DNA of 64,000 nucleotides from GCF_054482595.1 NZ_CM137008.1; one strand, 5' to 3'. Numbered from the stretch's first letter, positions 976-26,721 are shown. Notes: generated by a model from the letters alone, not told the origin. Made by a program: numbers and translations.

Positions 976-3458
976 AACTCAGTCGTCGTAGCTTTATGAA
1001 AGCTAACGCCGTTGCGGCCGCTGCGGCGGCTGCCGGTCTCAGCGTGCCGGGCGTTGCCCGCGCCGTTGTTGGTCAGCAGGAAGCCATTAAATGGGATAAA
1101 GCGCCGTGCCGTTTCTGCGGTACTGGTTGCGGCGTTCTGGTCGGAACGCAGCAGGGGCGTGTGGTGGCCTGTCAGGGCGACCCGGACGCACCGGTTAACC
1201 GTGGCCTGAACTGCATTAAGGGCTATTTCCTGCCCAAGATCATGTACGGTAAAGACCGTTTGACGCAGCCGCTGCTGCGTATGAAAAACGGTAAATATGA
1301 CAAAGAAGGCGAATTTACCCCAATCACCTGGGATCAGGCCTTCGATGTGATGGAAGAGAAATTCAAAACCGCCCTGAAAGAAAAAGGGCCGGAATCGATC
1401 GGTATGTTCGGTTCTGGTCAGTGGACTATCTGGGAAGGTTATGCCGCGTCCAAACTGTTTAAAGCGGGCTTCCGTTCGAACAACATCGACCCGAACGCGC
1501 GTCACTGTATGGCGTCGGCAGTAGTTGGCTTTATGCGTACCTTTGGTATGGATGAGCCGATGGGCTGCTATGACGACATCGAGCAGGCTGACGCGTTTGT
1601 GCTGTGGGGCGCAAACATGGCGGAAATGCACCCGATCCTCTGGTCGCGCATCACTAACCGTCGTCTCTCTAACCAGAACGTCACCGTGGCGGTGCTTTCT
1701 ACCTACCAGCATCGTAGCTTCGAGCTGGCGGATAACGGCATCATCTTTACGCCGCAATCTGACCTGGTGATCCTGAACTACATCGCCAACTATATCATTC
1801 AAAACAATGCGATAAATCAGGACTTCTTTAGCAAACACGTTAACCTGCGCAAAGGTGCGACGGACATCGGCTACGGTTTACGTCCGACCCATCCGCTGGA
1901 AAAAGCAGCGAAGAATCCGGGTTCTGATGCTTCCGAACCGATGAGCTTTGAAGATTACAAAGCCTTCGTTGCTGAGTATACGCTGGAAAAAACCGCTGAA
2001 ATGACCGGCGTGCCGAAAGACCAGTTAGAACAACTGGCGCAGCTGTATGCCGATCCGAACAAGAAAGTCATCTCCTACTGGACGATGGGCTTCAACCAGC
2101 ATACCCGTGGTGTATGGGCCAACAACCTGGTCTACAACCTGCACCTGCTGACCGGCAAAATTTCCCAGCCGGGTTGCGGTCCGTTCTCCCTGACCGGGCA
2201 GCCTTCTGCGTGTGGTACTGCGCGTGAAGTGGGCACCTTTGCTCACCGTCTGCCTGCGGACATGGTGGTGACTAACGAGAAACATCGTGATATCTGCGAG
2301 AAGAAGTGGAATATCCCGAGTGGCACCATTCCGGCAAAAATCGGTCTGCACGCGGTGGCACAAGACCGTGCGCTGAAAGACGGCAAGCTGAATGTTTACT
2401 GGACCATGTGTACCAACAACATGCAGGCCGGGCCGAACATCAATGAAGAGCGTATGCCGGGCTGGCGCGATCCGCGCAACTTCATCATCGTCTCCGATCC
2501 GTATCCGACAGTCAGTGCGCTGGCCGCCGACTTGATCCTGCCGACCGCAATGTGGGTAGAAAAAGAGGGCGCTTACGGTAACGCCGAACGCCGTACTCAG
2601 TTCTGGCGTCAGCAAGTACAGGCACCTGGTGAAGCGAAATCGGATCTCTGGCAGTTAGTTCAGTTCTCCCGTCGCTTCAAAACCGAAGAAGTATGGCCGG
2701 AAGAGCTGCTGGCGAAGAAACCGGAACTGCGTGGCAAAACGTTGTACGAGGTTCTGTATGCCACCCCGGAAGTGAGCAAATTCCCGGTATCCGAACTGGC
2801 GGAAGATCAGCTGAACGATGAATCCCGCGAGCTGGGCTTCTATCTGCAAAAAGGGCTGTTCGAAGAGTACGCATGGTTTGGTCGTGGTCACGGTCACGAT
2901 CTGGCACCGTTCGATGACTACCATAAAGCGCGCGGTCTGCGCTGGCCGGTGGTGAACGGTAAAGAAACTCAGTGGCGTTACAGCGAAGGTAACGACCCGT
3001 ACGTGAAAGCGGGCGAAGGCTACAAGTTCTACGGTAAACCGGATGGCAAAGCGGTGATCTTCGCACTGCCGTTCGAACCAGCGGCGGAAGCACCGGATGA
3101 AGAGTACGACCTGTGGCTCTCTACCGGACGCGTCCTGGAGCACTGGCACACCGGCAGTATGACTCGCCGTGTACCGGAACTGCACCGCGCCTTCCCGGAA
3201 GCGGTCCTGTTTATTCACCCGCTGGATGCGAAAGCGCGCGATCTGCGTCGTGGCGACAAAGTGAAAGTGGTTTCTCGCCGTGGCGAAGTGATCTCGATTG
3301 TCGAAACGCGCGGTCGTAACCGTCCGCCGCAGGGCCTGGTGTACATGCCGTTCTTCGACGCCGCACAGCTGGTTAACAAACTAACGCTGGACGCGACCGA
3401 TCCGCTCTCGAAAGAGACGGACTTCAAGAAGTGCGCGGTCAAACTGGAGAAGGTGTAA
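972..3458 (+). CDS. napA: Periplasmic nitrate reductase catalytic subunit NapA (molybdopterin)
   Basis: 828-aa ORF with Tat signal (SRRSFMKA...) and N-terminal Cys cluster CRFCGTGCG; recognised as NapA. Confidence 0.96.
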
Positions 3459-4160: not shown

Positions 4161-5010
4161 ACGTGACGCCGGGCGCGAGGCGCTGGAGAAAAAAGGCTGG
4201 TGGCGCAGTCACCGTTGGCTGGTGTTACGTCGCCTTTGTCAGTTCTTCGTGCTGGGGATGTTTTTGAGCGGTCCGTGGTTTGGTGTGTGGATCTTGCACG
4301 GCAACTACAGCAGTAGCCTGTTATTCGACACCGTTCCGCTGACCGATCCGCTGATGACGCTGCAAAGTCTTGCCAGTGGTCATCTGCCTGCCACGGTGGC
4401 GTTGACCGGTGCGGTGATTATCACCGTGCTCTACGCCCTGGCGGGAAAGCGATTATTTTGCAGCTGGGTCTGCCCGCTGAACCCGATTACCGACTTAGCG
4501 AACTGGTTACGCAGGCGCTTTGACCTCAATCAGTCTGCGACGATCCCTCGCCACATTCGCTACGTGCTGTTGGTGGTCATTCTGGTGGGATCAGCCTTAA
4601 CCGGCACGCTCATCTGGGAATGGATCAACCCCGTTTCCCTGATGGGGCGTAGCCTGGTAATGGGCTTCGGCAGCGGCGCGCTGCTTATTCTCGCGCTGTT
4701 TTTATTTGATCTACTGGTCGTTGAACACGGCTGGTGCGGGCACATTTGTCCGGTTGGCGCGCTTTATGGCGTGCTGGGTAGCAAAGGTGTGATTACCGTT
4801 GCGGCCAGCGATCGGCAGAAATGTAACCGCTGTATGGATTGTTTTCATGTTTGCCCGGAACCGCATGTGCTACGTGCCCCGGTGCTGGATGAACAAAGCC
4901 CGGTGCAGGTCACCAGCCGCGATTGCATGACGTGCGGTCGCTGCGTGGATGTCTGTTCTGAGGATGTATTTACAATAACTACACGATGGAGTTCGGGAGC
5001 GAAATCATGA
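4147..5010 (+). CDS. napH: Membrane-bound ferredoxin-type protein NapH
   Basis: 287 aa, hydrophobic N-terminal half and C-terminal Cys clusters; recognised as NapH. Confidence 0.93.
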
Positions 5011-20920: not shown

Positions 20921-21010
20921 ATGGAACGATGTGTAGATAAGTATGAGGAGAGGCATGTGCCGTTAAGGCAAAAGCCTCCAGTTCCTCCAAAACCACCCAA
21001 GGAAAACTGA
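20921..21010 (+). CDS. Micro-ORF (29 aa) encoding proline/lysine-rich peptide ending ...KPPVPPKPPKEN
   Basis: ATG preceded by AAGGA RBS at 6-nt spacing; stop 8 nt before the 21018 gene; shares the PP(K/R)P(K/R)PP motif with two micro-ORFs downstream. Confidence 0.4.
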   Translation: MERCVDKYEERHVPLRQKPPVPPKPPKEN

Positions 21011-21017
21011 GACTAAT

Positions 21018-21512
21018 ATGACCAGAGACGATTATAAATTTTATATTCACTACTCTTATGTATTGGAGAAGATGAATTACACGTTGTTAACTCGTATTGA
21101 TAAATTAATAACGTTGATGTTAATCGTTCTCGGTTTTTCAGTTTTCGCCCCGTACAGTAATTTATTTATTTTCGGTTTGTTTGTTGCCGTACTTTCGGTT
21201 CTTCAGTTGGTCTATCAGTTCGGCCAGGAGGCTGGGATGTCTAAAGAACAAGCGAGGCATTACAAAAGACTGCTGATTGAGTCTGATACTCTTTCTGAAG
21301 ATCAGTTGCAAGCTAGGTATTTAAAAATCCAAGATACCGATAGTAATCCATGGAAATCACTTGAACGAGCGGCTTTCATTCGGGCCTGCATTTTTGCTGG
21401 TGTTCCAACTAAGTACGATCTAACAACCAAAGAAAAATTTATTGCTTGGTGTGCGGGAGATCTACCTCTAGAGAATGAACTAACGGATATTAATGATGAC
21501 CAACAAGCATAA
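21018..21512 (+). CDS. Small membrane protein with two predicted TM helices (moron; possible abortive-infection/superinfection-exclusion effector)
   Basis: 164-aa ORF; two hydrophobic segments (LITLMLIVLGFSVFAP and LFIFGLFVAVLSVLQLVY) then a charged soluble C-terminus; AT-rich; opposite strand to int/xis/cI. Confidence 0.6.
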   Translation: MTRDDYKFYIHYSYVLEKMNYTLLTRIDKLITLMLIVLGFSVFAPYSNLFIFGLFVAVLSVLQLVYQFGQEAGMSKEQARHYKRLLIESDTLSEDQLQARYLKIQDTDSNPWKSLERAAFIRACIFAGVPTKYDLTTKEKFIAWCAGDLPLENELTDINDDQQA

Positions 21513-21567
21513 TCCAGTTCACGGACATGTACCTCCGAAGCCGAAACCACCGAAACCGAAGAAATGA
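21493..21567 (+). CDS. Micro-ORF (24 aa) encoding MMTNKHNPVHGHVPPKPKPPKPKK
   Basis: Overlaps the 3' end of the 21018 gene in another frame; proline/lysine-rich C-terminus. Confidence 0.35.
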   Translation: MMTNKHNPVHGHVPPKPKPPKPKK

Positions 21568-21586
21568 GACATAATAGGATTGGATA

Positions 21587-21655
21587 ATGAGTCGACCAAT
21601 AGAGCCTTTTCATATTCCACCTCGTCCCAGGCCACCAGATCCAGGCCCAAAGTGA
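21587..21655 (+). CDS. Micro-ORF (22 aa) encoding MSRPIEPFHIPPRPRPPDPGPK
   Basis: ATG preceded by AGGA RBS; proline/arginine-rich; followed by a terminator. Confidence 0.35.
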   Translation: MSRPIEPFHIPPRPRPPDPGPK

Positions 21656-21680
21656 GGGTTACTGATTTTTAAAGAGCGAA

Positions 21681-21702
21681 GCGTCCGGTAGGGCGCTTTT
21701 TT
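21681..21702 (+). terminator. Rho-independent terminator ending the small + strand moron operon
   Basis: GCGUCCGGUAGGGCGC 6-bp stem (one G-U pair) with GGUA tetraloop, followed by UUUUUUG. Confidence 0.5.
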
Positions 21703-21818
21703 GTTGCTAACGAATCATCTTGGACTTCATATGCCCCAGGCGGCTACTTCGTGAGCGTCCTGCCTGTTTGTTGTTTCTCTTGGGTACATTATGTATCTCA
21801 AAGGTACATTGTCAAGCA

Positions 21819-21842
21819 TAAAAAAACCTGCCGAAGCAGGTT
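21819..21842 (-). terminator. Rho-independent terminator downstream of cI
   Basis: Minus-strand RNA: ACCUGCUUCGGCAGGU hairpin followed by UUUUUUU, immediately after the cI stop. Confidence 0.65.
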
Positions 21843-21854
21843 CATAAACATTGA

Positions 21855-22529
21855 TTAGGCTTTGATTTTGTATCTTCTTGGTTTTCCTGAGAAAATCACA
21901 GTACCAATTATAGAGCAATTACCGTTGATCTTAATGTAAGGCTCAGGCCAGTTTGGGTTTAACGCTTTGAGATAACGCTGTGTCCCATCTTCTATCAACC
22001 TTTTGAAGGTGGTTTCACCTGTATCGTGCATCAATGCAATAACGTCGTCACCGTGGCAGGCAGGTACTTCAGGATCGACAAAAATCATGTCTCCCGGGCG
22101 GTACTCATCAATCATTGAATCACCTATCACCCGCAAGATATAAGTCATTTCCCCACAGGGTACAGGGCAGGGATACGTTTCTGCTGTGCTCAAATCAACC
22201 TCAGAATATCCAACTTCTTTCCATGCTCCGGCCTGTACCCATGATATGACAGGGACTAATGTGATTTGTTTATTAGTGATTGAAACATCAGGTTTTTTTG
22301 TGATGTTCGTTGTCTGGTGTTCTTGATCGAGCCATCCGACAGGCAGGTCGAAACATTTTTCGATGTGTCGTGCCATGCTGTCACCGATATTTTTAGTAGC
22401 ACCATCTCCCATAAACCTGCTGGTTTGGGTTGGCTCGCGATCAATCATAGTGGCAAAGGAAGAATTCCCGCCAACACCATCTCTCAGTTTTCTGGCGTTA
22501 GACCGCCGGATGTCATGGATTGTTTTCAT
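21855..22529 (-). CDS. Phage cI-like repressor (HTH plus S24 LexA-type peptidase domain)
   Basis: 224 aa; C-terminal part carries the S24 pattern (VIGDSM ... KR, Ser/Lys dyad context); divergent from the cro-like gene. Confidence 0.8.
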   Translation of the reverse strand: MKTIHDIRRSNARKLRDGVGGNSSFATMIDREPTQTSRFMGDGATKNIGDSMARHIEKCFDLPVGWLDQEHQTTNITKKPDVSITNKQITLVPVISWVQAGAWKEVGYSEVDLSTAETYPCPVPCGEMTYILRVIGDSMIDEYRPGDMIFVDPEVPACHGDDVIALMHDTGETTFKRLIEDGTQRYLKALNPNWPEPYIKINGNCSIIGTVIFSGKPRRYKIKA

Positions 22530-22544
22530 AACGAAATTAAAACC

Positions 22545-22565
22545 CTTGTACCGTTAAGGTACAAG
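22545..22565. promoter_or_regulatory. Putative operator palindrome (CTTGTACC-GTTAA-GGTACAAG) between cI and cro
   Basis: Perfect 8-bp inverted repeat in the 90-bp divergent intergenic region; further GGTACA half-sites at about 22606 and 21781..21810. Confidence 0.5.
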
Positions 22566-22619
22566 TATCTTGAAGGTTCATTTTAATCATGTAATATGTA
22601 TACCGGAGGTACATATTGT

Positions 22620-22820
22620 ATGAAAGCGTATTGGGACTCTTTAACCAAAGAACAGCAGGGCGAGTTGGCCGGAAAAGTTGGCTCAACACCTGGCTACTTA
22701 CGGCTGGTTTTCAATGGCTATAAAAAAGCCAGTTTTGTGCTGGCTAAAAAACTTGAGCAATGCACGTCAGGTGCAATTACGAAATCTGACTTAAGACCGG
22801 ATATCTATCCGAAAGATTAG
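22620..22820 (+). CDS. Cro-like HTH transcriptional regulator
   Basis: 66-aa product from ATG with GGAGG RBS; divergent from cI; HTH-like segment ELAGKVGSTPGYLRLVFNG. Confidence 0.7.
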   Translation: MKAYWDSLTKEQQGELAGKVGSTPGYLRLVFNGYKKASFVLAKKLEQCTSGAITKSDLRPDIYPKD

Positions 22821-22851
22821 CAGAACACTTTCAATTTTTAACCACAGAACG

Positions 22852-23415
22852 ATGAGGCTAATCGTGGGTAAGCATCACTGGAAAATAGAAAAACAGCCTG
22901 AGTGGTACATGAAAGCTGTCAGAAAAACTATCGCGGCGTTGCCGGGTGGTTACGCTGAAGCCGCTGACTGGCTGGATGTAACAGAGAACGCATTATTTAA
23001 CCGCCTTCGTGCCGATGGCGATCAGATTTTCCCGCTGGGATGGGCAATGATTTTGCAACGTGCTGGTGGAACTCACTTCATTGCTGATGCTGTGGCGCAG
23101 TCTGCAAATGGCGTCTTTGTGTCTCTTCCTGACGTCGAGGATGTGGACAACGCCGATATTAACCAGCGTCTGCTGGAAGTCATTGAACAGATTGGCAGTT
23201 ATTCAAAACAGATTCGTTCAGCAATCGAAGACGGTGTAGTGGAACCGCATGAGAAGACAGCAATTAATGACGAGCTGTACCTCTCAATTTCGAAGCTGCA
23301 GGAGCATGCAGCACTGGTCTACAAAATTTTTTGCATTTCAGAAAGTAATGACGCCCGCGAGTGTGCAGCTCCGGGCGCCGTGGCGTGTCGTGACTGTGGA
23401 GAAACTAACGCATGA
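22852..23415 (+). CDS. Phage early regulatory protein (CII-like position; family uncertain)
   Basis: 187-aa ORF immediately after cro, coupled (ATGA) to the next ORF; possible GTG start at 22864 with GAGG RBS. Confidence 0.45.
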
Positions 23416-23750
23416 ACAGTTTAACAACACATTACCGTCGCTCGCAACTGATTGCACTTCCTGTACCGGGTGGAAAAGCGAAGGTGGAGTATTGCTATGC
23501 AGTGAATGTACCAGGTGACAGGGAAATTGTAACCCACAGCTTTGCAGAGTGGGCTGTGGGCGATTTCAACCGGCAAAAGGAGACAGTCCTTTGCGACAAG
23601 TTAACCGCTGGTTCAAAGATCACTACGGAGTGCCCGTCAGAGTCATTCGTTGGGAGCCGGAAACACAACGGGTTATCTACCTCCGCGAAGGCTATGAGCA
23701 TGAGTGCTTCAGCCCGCTCGAACAGTTTCGTCGTAAATTCAGGGAAATAG
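23412..23750 (+). CDS. Hypothetical phage protein (possibly frameshifted with 23549..23770)
   Basis: ORF start coupled to the upstream gene (ATGA overlap); C-terminal half is low-complexity and overlaps a more protein-like ORF in another frame. Confidence 0.3.
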
Positions 23751-23770
23751 AGGTCGGTCATGAGCACTAA
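23549..23770 (+). CDS. Hypothetical phage protein
   Basis: 73-aa ORF whose stop overlaps the start of the replication gene; globular-looking sequence ([33 protein letters not shown]). Confidence 0.35.
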
Positions 23771-24701
23771 ATTAACCGGCTATGTATGGGATGGTTGCGC
23801 TGCGTCAGGCATGAAGTTATCCAGCGTGGCAATTATGGCCCGCCTGGCTGATTTCAGTAATGACGAAGGTGTGTGCTGGCCATCAATTGAAACCATTGCC
23901 CGCCAGATTGGCGCGGGGATGAGCACCGTCAGAACGGCTATCGCACGGCTGGAAGCAGAAGGCTGGTTAACTCGTAAGGCGCGTCGCCAGGGTAACCGCA
24001 ATGCGTCGAATGTTTATCAGCTTAACGTTGCGAAGCTTCAGGCAGCGGCATTTTCTCAACTGTCAGATTCTGACCCGTCAAAATCTGACGCATCAAAATC
24101 TGACCCGTCAAAATTTGATGCGTCGAAATCTGGCAAAAAAGCGGGTTTTCACCCGTCAGAATCTGGCGGGGATCCGTCAGTAAAATCAAAACATGATCCG
24201 TCAGATAAAAAAAACTCTCGTCCGGACGCTTCGCAACCGGACACGCAGATGGATGAACAGGATTTTTTAACTCGCCATCCTGATGCGGTTGTATTCAGCC
24301 CTAAAAAGCGCCAGTGGGGGACGCAGGATGATTTGACCTGCGCACAGTGGCTCTGGAAAAAAATCATCGCCCTGTACGAGCAGGCTGCCGAATGTGACGG
24401 CGAGGTGGTTCGTCCCAAAGAACCGAACTGGACAGCCTGGGCAAACGAAATTCGCCTGATGTGTGTGCAGGATGGTCGTACTCACAAACAAATCTGCGAG
24501 ATGTACAGCCGCGTCAGCCGCGATCCGTTCTGGTGCCGTAACGTGCTCAGCCCGTCGAAGCTGCGGGAAAAATGGGATGAGCTTTCCCTGCGCTTATCGC
24601 CGTCCGTAAGCACGTACACCGAAAAACGCGAAGACCCGTACTTCAAATCCAGTTACGACAACGTGGACTACAGCCAGATCCCGGCAGGATTCAGGGGGTG
24701 A
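23760..24701 (+). CDS. Phage replication initiation protein (N-terminal HTH, central SKSD repeat linker, DnaT-like C-terminus)
   Basis: 313 aa; N-terminal winged-helix-like region (IARQIGAGMSTVRTAIARLEAEGWL); repeat peptide DPSKSDASKSDPSKFDASKSG encoded by DNA iterons; position equivalent to lambda O. Confidence 0.7.
   Translation: MSTKLTGYVWDGCAASGMKLSSVAIMARLADFSNDEGVCWPSIETIARQIGAGMSTVRTAIARLEAEGWLTRKARRQGNRNASNVYQLNVAKLQAAAFSQLSDSDPSKSDASKSDPSKFDASKSGKKAGFHPSESGGDPSVKSKHDPSDKKNSRPDASQPDTQMDEQDFLTRHPDAVVFSPKKRQWGTQDDLTCAQWLWKKIIALYEQAAECDGEVVRPKEPNWTAWANEIRLMCVQDGRTHKQICEMYSRVSRDPFWCRNVLSPSKLREKWDELSLRLSPSVSTYTEKREDPYFKSSYDNVDYSQIPAGFRG
24069..24128. repeat. Four tandem 15-bp iterons (TCTGACNCNTCAAAA) inside the replication gene, putative ori
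   Basis: Direct repeats, each with internal dyad GTCA-AAAT-CTGAC, followed by further CCGTCAG motifs and an A-rich tract; same layout as lambda ori inside O. Confidence 0.55.
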
Positions 24702-25192
24702 TCATGAGTCTTTTGAATGACGTTCAGAAATTCATTGAAGCCCATCCGGGGTGTACTTCCGGAGACATTGCGGATGCTTTTGCTGGTTACTCACGGCAGC
24801 GCGTTCTGCAGTCAGCAAGCAAGTTACGTCAGAGTGGGCGTGTGGCTCACCGTTGTGAAGGGGATACACGCAGACATTTCCCGCGCCTGACTGAGAGAGC
24901 GCAGGAACTGGAACCACAACCAGTTCGAGAAACCAGATCTGTGCGCAATTTCTATGTCGGCACTAACGATCCCCGGGTGATTTTGTGCCTGACCCGCCAG
25001 GCTGAAAAACTGGAGTCCAGGGGCTTATACCGTCGTGCTGCAACGGTGTGGATGGCGGCATTCCGTGAAAGCCACTCCCAGCCAGAACGAAACAATTTTC
25101 TGGCGCGTCGTGAGCAGTGTTTACGGAAAAGCAGCAAGCGCGCTGTATCGAGTGATGAGTGGTATCTGTCAGGGAATTACGTGGGGGCGTAA
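24698..25192 (+). CDS. Hypothetical phage protein, possibly PerC/Pch-like regulator
   Basis: 164 aa; motif AEKLESRGLYRRAATVWMAA resembles the PerC-family signature as I recall it; low certainty. Confidence 0.4.
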   Translation: MIMSLLNDVQKFIEAHPGCTSGDIADAFAGYSRQRVLQSASKLRQSGRVAHRCEGDTRRHFPRLTERAQELEPQPVRETRSVRNFYVGTNDPRVILCLTRQAEKLESRGLYRRAATVWMAAFRESHSQPERNNFLARREQCLRKSSKRAVSSDEWYLSGNYVGA

Positions 25193-25518
25193 TGACGACG
25201 TTAACTCAATGCCAGCAGCAGGTGCTGGATATGCTGATTTCTTATCAGAAAGAGCGTGGCTTTCCGCCAACCAATCAGGAGGTGGCAACCATGCTGGGAT
25301 ACCGTTCAGTGAATGCAGCGGTAGAGCATCTTCGCGCACTGGAGAAAAAAGGCGTCATCACGATAAAGCGTGGCGTGGCCCGGGGGATAACGCTTCATAC
25401 CGCGGTGAAGGACGACGACAGCGAGGCGGTCGGGATTATCCGCGCACTGCTTGCCGGTGAGGAAAACGCAAGGCTGCGTGCAACCCACTGGTTACATGAG
25501 AGGGGCCTGAAAGTATGA
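25192..25518 (+). CDS. LexA N-terminal DNA-binding-domain-like protein (no S24 peptidase domain)
   Basis: MTTLTQCQQQVLDMLISYQKERGFPPTNQEVATMLGYRSVNAAVEHLRALEKKGVI parallels the LexA N-terminal winged helix (MKALTARQQEV...[26 protein letters not shown]); only about 108 aa. Confidence 0.65.
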   Translation: MTTLTQCQQQVLDMLISYQKERGFPPTNQEVATMLGYRSVNAAVEHLRALEKKGVITIKRGVARGITLHTAVKDDDSEAVGIIRALLAGEENARLRATHWLHERGLKV

Positions 25519-25904
25519 AGCTGATCCTGCCTTTTCCGCCCAGCGTGAACACGTACTGGCGACACCCCAACAAAGGGGCGTTTGCTGGTAAGAGCCTGAT
25601 AAGCGCGGCGGGGCGAAAATTCCAGAGCGCGGCGTGTGCAGCAATAGTTGAGCAGTTACGTCGTCTGCCGAAACCAACGTCGGCACCTGCTTCAGTGGAG
25701 ATCGTGTTGTTTCCTCCGGATAACCGGATCCGCGATCTGGACAACTATAACAAGGCGCTGTTTGACGCCCTGACCCACGCGGGTGTGTGGGAAGACGACA
25801 GCCAGGTGAAAAGAATGTTGGTGGAGTGGGGACCGGTTATCCCGGAAGGGAAGGTCGAGATCACTATCAGTAAGTACGAGAAAACGGCGGGTGCAGCCGC
25901 CTGA
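25515..25904 (+). CDS. rusA: Holliday junction resolvase RusA
   Basis: 129 aa; N-terminal LPFPPSVNTYWR and conserved acidic residues (DLDNYNKALFDAL) typical of RusA. Confidence 0.8.
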   Translation: MKLILPFPPSVNTYWRHPNKGAFAGKSLISAAGRKFQSAACAAIVEQLRRLPKPTSAPASVEIVLFPPDNRIRDLDNYNKALFDALTHAGVWEDDSQVKRMLVEWGPVIPEGKVEITISKYEKTAGAAA

Positions 25905-25923
25905 TCAAGAGGAGAAACGAAGT

Positions 25924-26721
25924 ATGAATAATCTGATGGTCATTGATGGTATTGAAGTTCGTCGTGATGCTTATGGGCGTTACAGCCTGAACGATCTGCA
26001 CAGGGCTGCCGGTTCTCTGGATAAGCATAAGCCTGCATTCTGGCTCCGCAATGAGCAAACTGAACGTTTAATAAGCGAGTTGCAGATTTGCAACTCGGTC
26101 AATATAGAGCCAGTTAACGTTATTCGCGGCGGAAATAATCAGGGGACGTATGTCTGTAAGGAACTGGTGTATGCCTATGCAATGTGGATCAGCCCGTCAT
26201 TCCATCTGAAGGTGATCCGTACTTTCGACATGGTAACCAGCGCACCGGAAAAATTATCCGGACAGGCTGCTGACAAGATGCAGGCTGGAGTGATTCTGCT
26301 GGACTTTATGCGTCGGGAGTTAAACCTGTCTAACTCATCTGTGCTTGGGGCCTGTCAAAAACTCCAGGAGGCTGTTGGCTTACCGAATCTGGCACCGCGC
26401 TATGCCATTGATGCTCCTGCTGATGCACACGATGGCTCAAGTCGCCCCACGCTGTCGCTGAGTGCACTGCTGAAGCAGTATGGTATCCGCCTGACGGCTA
26501 ATCAGGCATATCACCAGATGGTGAAGCTGGGGATCGTTGAACAACGCGAACGATACAGCCGTACCGCGATTAACAACATCAAAAAATTCTGGTCGCTGAC
26601 AGCGAAAGGCTGCATGTTCGGCAAGAACATCACCAGTCCCGCAAATCCGCGCGAGACGCAGCCGCATTTCTTCGAATCCCGATTCCCTGAGCTGTTAAAG
26701 CTGCTCGATACCGTTCATTGA
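25924..26721 (+). CDS. KilA-N domain-containing protein (putative antirepressor-like)
   Basis: Start set at MNNLMVIDG; N-terminal region has KilA-N character (YSLNDLHRAAG ... TYVCKELVYAYAMWISPSFHLKVI). Confidence 0.6.
   Translation: MNNLMVIDGIEVRRDAYGRYSLNDLHRAAGSLDKHKPAFWLRNEQTERLISELQICNSVNIEPVNVIRGGNNQGTYVCKELVYAYAMWISPSFHLKVIRTFDMVTSAPEKLSGQAADKMQAGVILLDFMRRELNLSNSSVLGACQKLQEAVGLPNLAPRYAIDAPADAHDGSSRPTLSLSALLKQYGIRLTANQAYHQMVKLGIVEQRERYSRTAINNIKKFWSLTAKGCMFGKNITSPANPRETQPHFFESRFPELLKLLDTVH

Follow-up and report, generated by a model that had tools for sequence, protein, structure and literature searches.

A conserved out-of-frame overlap between ymfM and a DUF4222 gene ahead of a prophage replication gene

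YmfM, RgdR, and other described systems

YmfM (b1148), encoded by the cryptic prophage e14 of Escherichia coli K-12, has been proposed as the SOS-inducible division inhibitor SfiC and was reported, in K-12 work, to cause filamentation and loss of the Z-ring independently of SulA, SlmA, and MinC (Ansari et al., bioRxiv 10.1101/2020.11.19.390815). The experiments used the "open reading frame (ORF) of ymfM" cloned in pBAD24 together with gene deletions (bioRxiv 10.1101/2020.11.19.390815), and the original library clone spanned ymfL', ymfM, and ymfN'. We analyzed an orthologue of this gene in a 64,000-nucleotide (nt) stretch of NZ_CM137008.1 (GCF_054482595.1), given as one strand from 5' to 3' and called the window below; all coordinates are positions in it. 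Here ymfM occupies 23412..23750 on the plus strand, encoding 112 amino acids (aa), and shares 160 nt (23591..23750) with a gene for a 59-aa protein of the DUF4222 (PF13973) or RgdR family (23591..23770, plus strand, TTG start), ymfM being the +1 frame of the DUF4222 gene. Nucleotide identity to e14 is 98%, both over 421 nt of the region and for ymfM itself, 110 of the 112 aa of YmfM are identical, and the gene order ymfK-ymfT-ymfL-ymfM-replication gene is common to the two elements, leaving no meaningful sequence difference from the published YmfM. What differs from the published description is that the ymfM ORF also holds a second conserved gene in another frame. Both genes are real and share a conserved overlap, selection acts against stops in the frame of the ymfM tail, and the ymfM stop has a fixed position; with considerable confidence, we regard the pair as two separate functional genes in different frames whose overlap is selectively kept and in which the tail of ymfM is overprinted.

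Of the DUF4222 family, one member has been studied: RgdR (ECs1581, 99 aa) of Sp7 / CP-933C in E. coli O157:H7, which activates LEE1 and the type III secretion system, represses motility, and binds DNA without specificity (PMC3378721, PMC10877973). An RGD motif is important for its activity (PMC3378721). The protein encoded here shares the Pfam domain with RgdR and is 41% identical to it over 49 aa (E 3e-11), and both genes lie directly upstream of the replication gene of their element and overlap it (a primase gene in Sp7). RgdR has N- and C-terminal extensions, whereas the protein here is limited to 59 aa; the RGD motif (RgdR residues 20–22) is absent here and aligns with V4-N5-R6 in the BLASTP register; and rgdR has two to four stops in its +1 frame and no overlapping ORF of the ymfM type. 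DUF4222-family genes are placed directly upstream of and overlapping a replication gene in unrelated elements, among them lambdoid prophages and Sp7 / CP-933C (for example, rgdR itself at 4305..4604 of our locus L131 from E. coli O157:H7 Sakai, and the gene at 1913..2092 of locus L231), and this gene position suggests that the family may have a replication-linked role.

Out-of-frame overlapping or embedded gene pairs are familiar from phages, as in Rz/Rz1 of lambda and D/E of phiX174, and translational coupling by termination–reinitiation at stop/start junctions occurs in bacterial and phage operons. The present pair is like the former in that one stretch of DNA encodes two proteins, one frame being older and constrained and the other overprinted and sequence-tolerant or disordered. 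It is unlike them in that only the C-terminal half of the overprinted protein is affected, with its N-terminal domain outside the overlap, that the absence of stops is the only detectable constraint on the overprinted frame, and that the two products have no known functional link. Classical coupling is matched by a stop lying 9 nt before the downstream ATG and inside its Shine–Dalgarno sequence in most loci, but the upstream ORF here reaches this junction only through an entire other gene in another frame, and the coupling is putative. A literature search found, within the searchable library, no paper that links ymfM with DUF4222 or mentions their overlap. What appears to be new is that the 160-nt out-of-frame overlap is conserved and selected, that ymfM terminates at a fixed point, and that it is consequently ambiguous which product is SfiC; both genes belong to known families. 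The pair offers a well-defined natural system in which to study overprinting and long-range translational coupling, one frame being constrained only to lack stops.

Selection on both frames of the overlap

The initial annotation had described two ORFs in different frames, 23412..23750 (112 aa) and 23549..23770 (73 aa), and read them as a single gene frameshifted near 23550–23600 or else as a pair of nested genes. Both ORFs are present and lie one base out of phase, as described. We compared the region with phage records and with 37 loci from GTDB genomes, one genome per species, representing Atlantibacter, Citrobacter, Enterobacter, Kosakonia, Raoultella, Kluyvera, Pseudescherichia, Silvania, Phytobacter, Pantoea, and Mixta. 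The nt distance among the loci in the DUF4222 region has a median of 0.28 and a maximum of 0.43, and 45 of the 46 distinct loci, which range from Escherichia to Pantoea and Mixta, contain the same two genes with an overlap of about 160 nt and the same frame relation. A scan of viral_contigs with the YmfM alignment gave 80 near-identical E. coli loci, which are too close to inform on divergence and served for polymorphism counts; among the E. coli copies (n = 81), the two ORFs are intact in 81 and 80, respectively.

These comparisons bear on the possibility that one ancestral gene was broken by a frameshift mutation or a sequencing error. Two out-of-phase ORFs side by side are what such an event would leave, and a few database proteins fuse the YmfM N terminus in frame to DUF4222 (P0030, P0053, P0060, and P0065). 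Those fusions, however, are joined at four different points, and most of them are singletons that come from read assemblies, whereas all 45 diverged adjacent loci keep the two frames at the same offset and none contains a single continuous ORF. The integrity of both ORFs in the E. coli copies, the conserved Shine–Dalgarno sequence and start codon of the DUF4222 gene, and the fact that in Citrobacter phage phiNP and in locus L231 another gene stands between the two parts, each of which is a gene of its own, speak equally against a broken gene, to which we assign an almost negligible probability. Homologues with two distinct conserved genes sharing this overlap are also what the initial annotation had named as its refutation, and the single frameshifted gene is therefore abandoned. 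The fallback of the annotation was right in that two genes share sequence, though they are not nested, the overlap being limited to 160 nt and the second gene running 11 nt into the replication gene.

For the second ORF, the annotated end holds and the annotated start does not: judged from the alignment of start sites, the DUF4222 gene most likely begins at TTG 23591 (59 aa) and not at GTG 23549. TTG 23591 aligns with the starts of the homologues, which are ATG in 36, GTG in 6, and TTG in 2 of 44, and in every homologue the bases ahead of that start are rich in purines; in the window, the Shine–Dalgarno sequence, as read from the DNA, is AAGGAG at 23577..23582 (plus strand), inside ymfM. The Prokaryotic Genome Annotation Pipeline (PGAP) also places the start at 23591. 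In K-12 and most E. coli haplotypes, the change C23561T creates a TGA at 23561–23563 in the DUF4222 frame upstream of 23591, which rules out GTG 23549 as the start there. With the start at 23591, the true overlap is 23591..23750. The globular appearance noted for this ORF is borne out by a match to Pfam DUF4222 (E 3e-19, 68.7 bits against a cut-off of 27, model positions 1–52 of 53) and by an AlphaFold2 model with a predicted local distance difference test (pLDDT) score of 84, in which the protein is predicted to form a small Tudor/SH3-like beta-barrel of the RgdR family. The RNA fold around the start is not unusual (z = −0.35). In the minimum-energy fold, 23574..23593 forms a 6-bp hairpin in which the Shine–Dalgarno sequence (AAAGGA) pairs with a UCCUUU overlapping the TTG; this sequence is not conserved in homologues.

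Two frames could also be joined without any mutation, if programmed −1 ribosomal frameshifting fused the YmfM N domain to DUF4222 in the manner of dnaX or of phage tail G/GT. The DUF4222 gene does lie in the −1 frame relative to ymfM, and an A-rich CAAAAGG is found at 23574–23580. In the ymfM frame, however, this is read as CGG CAA AAG GAG and provides no X XXY YYZ heptamer, and the homologues do not keep CAAAAGG and have ggcggagaaagt or gaaggggcgcgagga in its place. The independent start codon of DUF4222 is conserved, and the TGA at 23561–23563 in K-12 and most E. coli haplotypes narrows the window for a shift to about 27 nt. We consider frameshifting very improbable.

The ATG of the first ORF, ymfM, shares bases with the stop (TGA) of the preceding CII-like gene (gcATGAac), in agreement with the ATGA junction described earlier. 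The ymfM product has an N-terminal domain of residues 1–66 (23412..23609, plus strand) that is conserved and has a predicted fold, the AlphaFold2 model giving three strands and a helix for residues ~10–66 at pLDDT 68–87. Residues 67–112 have pLDDT below 40 and are predicted to be disordered; this tail (23610..23747, plus strand, in the +1 frame of the DUF4222 gene) is free in sequence and free of stops, and the low complexity noted for the C-terminal half reflects its richness in S, T, A, and G. YmfM would thus consist of a folded N-terminal domain of ~60 aa and a disordered tail of ~50 aa. The protein matches phrog_1170 (E 1.7e-70). It has no Pfam or NCBIfam family, and no fold match was found for the model. 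In PHROGs, phrog_1170 (112 aa), phrog_20047 (63 aa), and the DUF4222 family phrog_1343 are all three labeled "unknown function."

One might argue that only the DUF4222 gene is real and that the 112-aa ymfM is a chance open frame, a historical relic of the K-12 annotation: PGAP does not call it in any of the 30 E. coli genomes among the matches listed, no Pfam or NCBIfam model covers it, and its C-terminal half is of low complexity. We find this highly unlikely. The N-terminal part is under purifying selection, with a ratio of nonsynonymous to synonymous substitution rates (dN/dS) of 0.22–0.33 (computed within three diverged N-domain types) and with 13 synonymous and 1 nonsynonymous polymorphisms among 33 E. 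coli haplotypes. Its Shine–Dalgarno sequence GGAG (23398..23401, plus strand, 10 nt before the ATG) is part of a motif, gtGGAGa...cgcATG, that is conserved ahead of each ymfM-type ORF across 31 diverged loci, regardless of the type of N domain. The predicted fold counts further against a chance frame, as does the breadth of the family. The N termini fall into at least four diverged types that can still be aligned, with M1, Q12, P17, G20, Y29, and V49 conserved, and a profile search of 1.84 billion representatives gave 117 clusters of bimodal length, 48 of 53–70 aa and 35 of 100–123 aa. Most tails of the long forms consist to 50–65% of S, T, A, G, and N. The short forms examined all follow a CII-like gene and run up to the start of the next gene, which encodes a Rha/ASH protein, a KilA-N/ANT protein, or an unknown product. 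As no stop separates the N-terminal part of ymfM from its tail, translation of the one entails translation of the other.

The two genes can be separated, and where an antirepressor gene lies between them, ymfM is short and stands alone. In phage phiNP, a Rha gene is inserted, ymfM has 65 aa and ends 20 nt into rha, and the DUF4222 gene stands alone before the replication gene and has five stops in its +1 frame. Locus L231 resembles phiNP in having the two genes apart, and ymfM is short and stand-alone in loci L229–L232. Two unusual forms of ymfM were seen among the loci. In L128 (1349..2503) and L129 (Citrobacter braakii and a metagenome-assembled genome labeled Lachnospiraceae), the ymfM-frame ORF has no stop before the next gene and continues for 383 aa, through ~100 apparently noncoding codons, into an in-frame gene for a Rha-like antirepressor. 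In L227 (2001..2237; Entomohabitans teleogrylli), a 78-aa YmfM stands directly before the replication gene in the absence of a DUF4222 gene, and its last 11 nt, stop included, are shared with the start of the replication gene, a geometry usual for DUF4222; from its sequence, this locus looks as if a deletion had fused the ymfM N domain with the final codons of DUF4222.

Over the first 159 nt of the DUF4222 gene, the +1 frame contains no stop in 45 of 46 distinct loci, and this open frame is the tail of the upstream ATG ORF, which has 108–116 aa. When the DUF4222 codons were recoded synonymously with local codon usage, the +1 frame stayed open in 0.4–17% of trials (mean 5.4%), against the 44 of 45 loci (98%) observed; recoding of the window sequence alone left it open in ~7.5%. 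The codon-aligned antisense frame, used as a control, is expected to be open in 47% and was observed to be open in 76%. A +1 stop arises when a third-position purine makes TAA, TAG, or TGA with a next codon starting with A or G, and the codons able to create one are always NNY: CTT, CTC, or GTT in column 4 of the alignment, GTC (25) or GTT (19) in column 18, and GTT (43) in column 28. Before a codon starting with C or T, the same residues freely use GTG, GTA, ATA, and CTG (columns 14, 16, 19, 29, and 31). By Fitch parsimony on a neighbor-joining tree, changes between pyrimidine and purine at the third base make up 0 of 17 at sites that are always at risk and 23 of 40 at sites that are mostly safe (Fisher P = 1.9e-5). 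DUF4222 genes without a read-through ymfM do carry +1 stops, in 12 of 13 of the phiNP type (1–5 stops) and in all 35 of the RgdR type (2–4 stops); taken together, 47 of the 48 distinct DUF4222 sequences from other contexts have 1–5 stops in this frame.

Whether the open frame could be an unselected by-product of the composition or codon usage of DUF4222 can be judged from the same numbers. The antisense codon-aligned frame is likewise open in 35 of 46 loci, which is compositional, and the sequences share descent. The gap between 5.4% and 98%, the dependence of codon choice on the base that follows, and its significance on the tree nevertheless make a by-product very unlikely, as do the +1 stops of DUF4222 genes elsewhere. 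As a separate observation, one phiNP-type gene of the 13, at ~1201..1377 of locus L140 (IMG/VR contig 3300031416_000346), is the only one that has no +1 stop; the frame is open for a further 78 nt upstream, and an overlapping ORF may have arisen independently here.

Substitution rates within the overlap differ sharply between the frames. In the DUF4222 frame, dN/dS is 0.05–0.15, and the synonymous rate (dS) of 0.7–1.26 indicates that the synonymous sites of DUF4222 are not slowed. In the ymfM frame, dN/dS is 1.6–2.2, and the amino acid sequence of the tail is therefore not conserved for its own sake. Selection is thus detectable on both frames of the overlap, as amino acid constraint in DUF4222 and as stop avoidance in ymfM. 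We regard the ymfM tail as an overprinted extension whose amino acid sequence is dictated by the DUF4222 frame.

The ymfM stop, the replication gene, and SfiC

Downstream of the pair lies a replication-initiator-like gene (23760..24701, plus strand; HTH_36 / DnaD_N-like by Pfam), named "replication protein O / primosomal protein" in phage records. The DUF4222 stop, TAA at 23768–23770, overlaps its start as the initial annotation had stated, the last 11 nt of the DUF4222 gene coinciding with the first 11 nt of the replication gene. The ymfM stop, a TAG, is part of the Shine–Dalgarno sequence TAGAGG of the replication gene (23748..23753, plus strand) and lies 9 nt ahead of that gene's ATG, in frame with it. 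Among 31 adjacent loci, a script placed the ymfM stop, TAA or TAG, at exactly this distance of 9 nt upstream of the replication-gene ATG in 28, and inspection by eye adds L124. The stop is in frame with the replication gene and inside its Shine–Dalgarno sequence (TAAAGGA or TAGAGG), even though the replication genes differ, whereas the DUF4222 stop is variable and falls 20–80 nt downstream of the ymfM stop.

This geometry suggests a use for the stop-free tail. By purging stops from the tail, selection would let ymfM ribosomes cross the whole DUF4222 gene; their termination site, 9 nt ahead of the replication-gene ATG, would fall within the Shine–Dalgarno sequence of that gene, and they could thus be delivered to its start by termination–reinitiation. 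The read-through ribosomes might at the same time keep covered the stretch of mRNA that carries DUF4222, which, starting with TTG, would be weakly initiated. That translational coupling to the replication gene is the benefit of the stop-free tail is a tentative proposal, to which we give somewhat less than an even chance.

The frame may alternatively be kept open because the disordered tail does work within YmfM. It might, for example, act as a spacer or a binding region, or mark a toxic division inhibitor for proteases or degradation, and ribosome delivery would then play no part. The long forms keep a steady content of S, T, A, G, and N (50–65%), the published inhibitor clone carries the entire tail, and overprinted regions are typically disordered. 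A working tail is harder to reconcile with the dN/dS of 1.6–2.2 in its own frame and with DUF4222 synonymous sites that are not slowed; tail-less short forms are common, and it is with respect to the replication-gene start, and not to tail length, that the position of the ymfM stop is fixed. We see this as a real possibility, though a rather unlikely one.

Several points weigh against a selected overlap that serves translational coupling. Polymorphisms of the E. coli overlap split 6:6 between the two frames. The loci are related by descent, so that 44 of 45 overstates the number of independent observations, for which the parsimony analysis and the out-of-context controls are a partial remedy. 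Short stand-alone forms make up 48 of the 117 cluster representatives, which means that the tail is dispensable for the N domain elsewhere, weakens the case for a functional tail, and makes any harm from truncation here harder to explain. The RNA fold at the replication-gene start is not unusual (z = +1.14) and contains no sequestering structure, and the coupling function is a proposal from geometry. For the two proteins, the literature search found induction of the transcript only, and no proteomics or ribosome profiling.

The overlap also affects the interpretation of SfiC. The pBAD-ymfM clone should carry DUF4222 codons 1–53 of 59 together with their own ribosome-binding site, and deletion of ymfM would remove most of the DUF4222 gene. 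The published "ymfM" overexpression clone and deletions thus affect two genes at once, and because they leave the frames unseparated, the filamentation phenotype could be assigned to either product. The SOS-inducible division block was ascribed to SfiC for decades and has been ascribed to "ymfM" since 2020. A stronger version, in which this block is caused by or requires the embedded DUF4222 product rather than YmfM alone and the stop-free tail acts as a coupling device for the replication protein, is doubtful in our view.

Annotation and neighboring features

The region matches an E. coli chromosome at 100% identity and Shigella phages SfIV and SfII at 98–99%, and ~1,900 genomes carry most of the ymfM–DUF4222 region. 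Its neighborhood is that of a typical lambdoid early-right operon, of a prophage like e14, SfII, and SfIV. A CI/LexA-like repressor gene (21855..22529, minus strand) is followed by a Cro-like gene ending at 22820 and by ymfL (22852..23415, plus strand), which encodes a CII-like regulator (Phage_CP76 / NF041471; Pfam PF06892, E 1.8e-13; NCBIfam YmfL, 167 bits against a cut-off of 90) and is annotated by PGAP in the 100% identical genome; ymfM comes after these three genes and before the replication gene. On the 3' side of the replication gene are PerC, LexA-family, RusA, and KilA-N genes.

Annotation of the pair varies with its source. The K-12 annotation contains ymfM (b1148, "cell division inhibitor YmfM") and no DUF4222 gene, whereas PGAP calls the 59-aa DUF4222 coding sequence at 23591..23770 and leaves ymfM uncalled, in 30 of 30 E. 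coli genomes among the matches listed; each source thereby misses one real gene of the pair. Phage records are inconsistent and give YmfM only, both genes, or an antisense ORF. The latter has its equivalent here in a 90-aa ORF at 23495..23767 (minus strand) that covers the DUF4222 gene and whose counterpart is annotated as a coding sequence in some Klebsiella/Escherichia phage records (MK416017, ON470608). It is the codon-aligned antisense frame, with sporadic stops among the loci (open in 35 of 46), and is probably spurious.

Two features farther downstream were also noted. Between the PerC-family gene and rusA, PGAP annotates a "LexA family transcriptional regulator" of 108 aa in the identical genome (25192..25518); being far shorter than LexA, it presumably represents the DNA-binding part only. 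An Rfam scan of 21000–26000 gave chance-level matches only, far under the gathering scores, and the meaningless subthreshold miRNA match among them fell on a repetitive stretch inside the replication gene. This stretch, 24069..24132, consists of 4 1/3 tandem copies of the 15-nt unit TCTGACCCGTCAAAA, encoding SDPSKSDASKSDPSKFDASKS, and by analogy with lambda O, the units look like origin iterons within an initiator gene.

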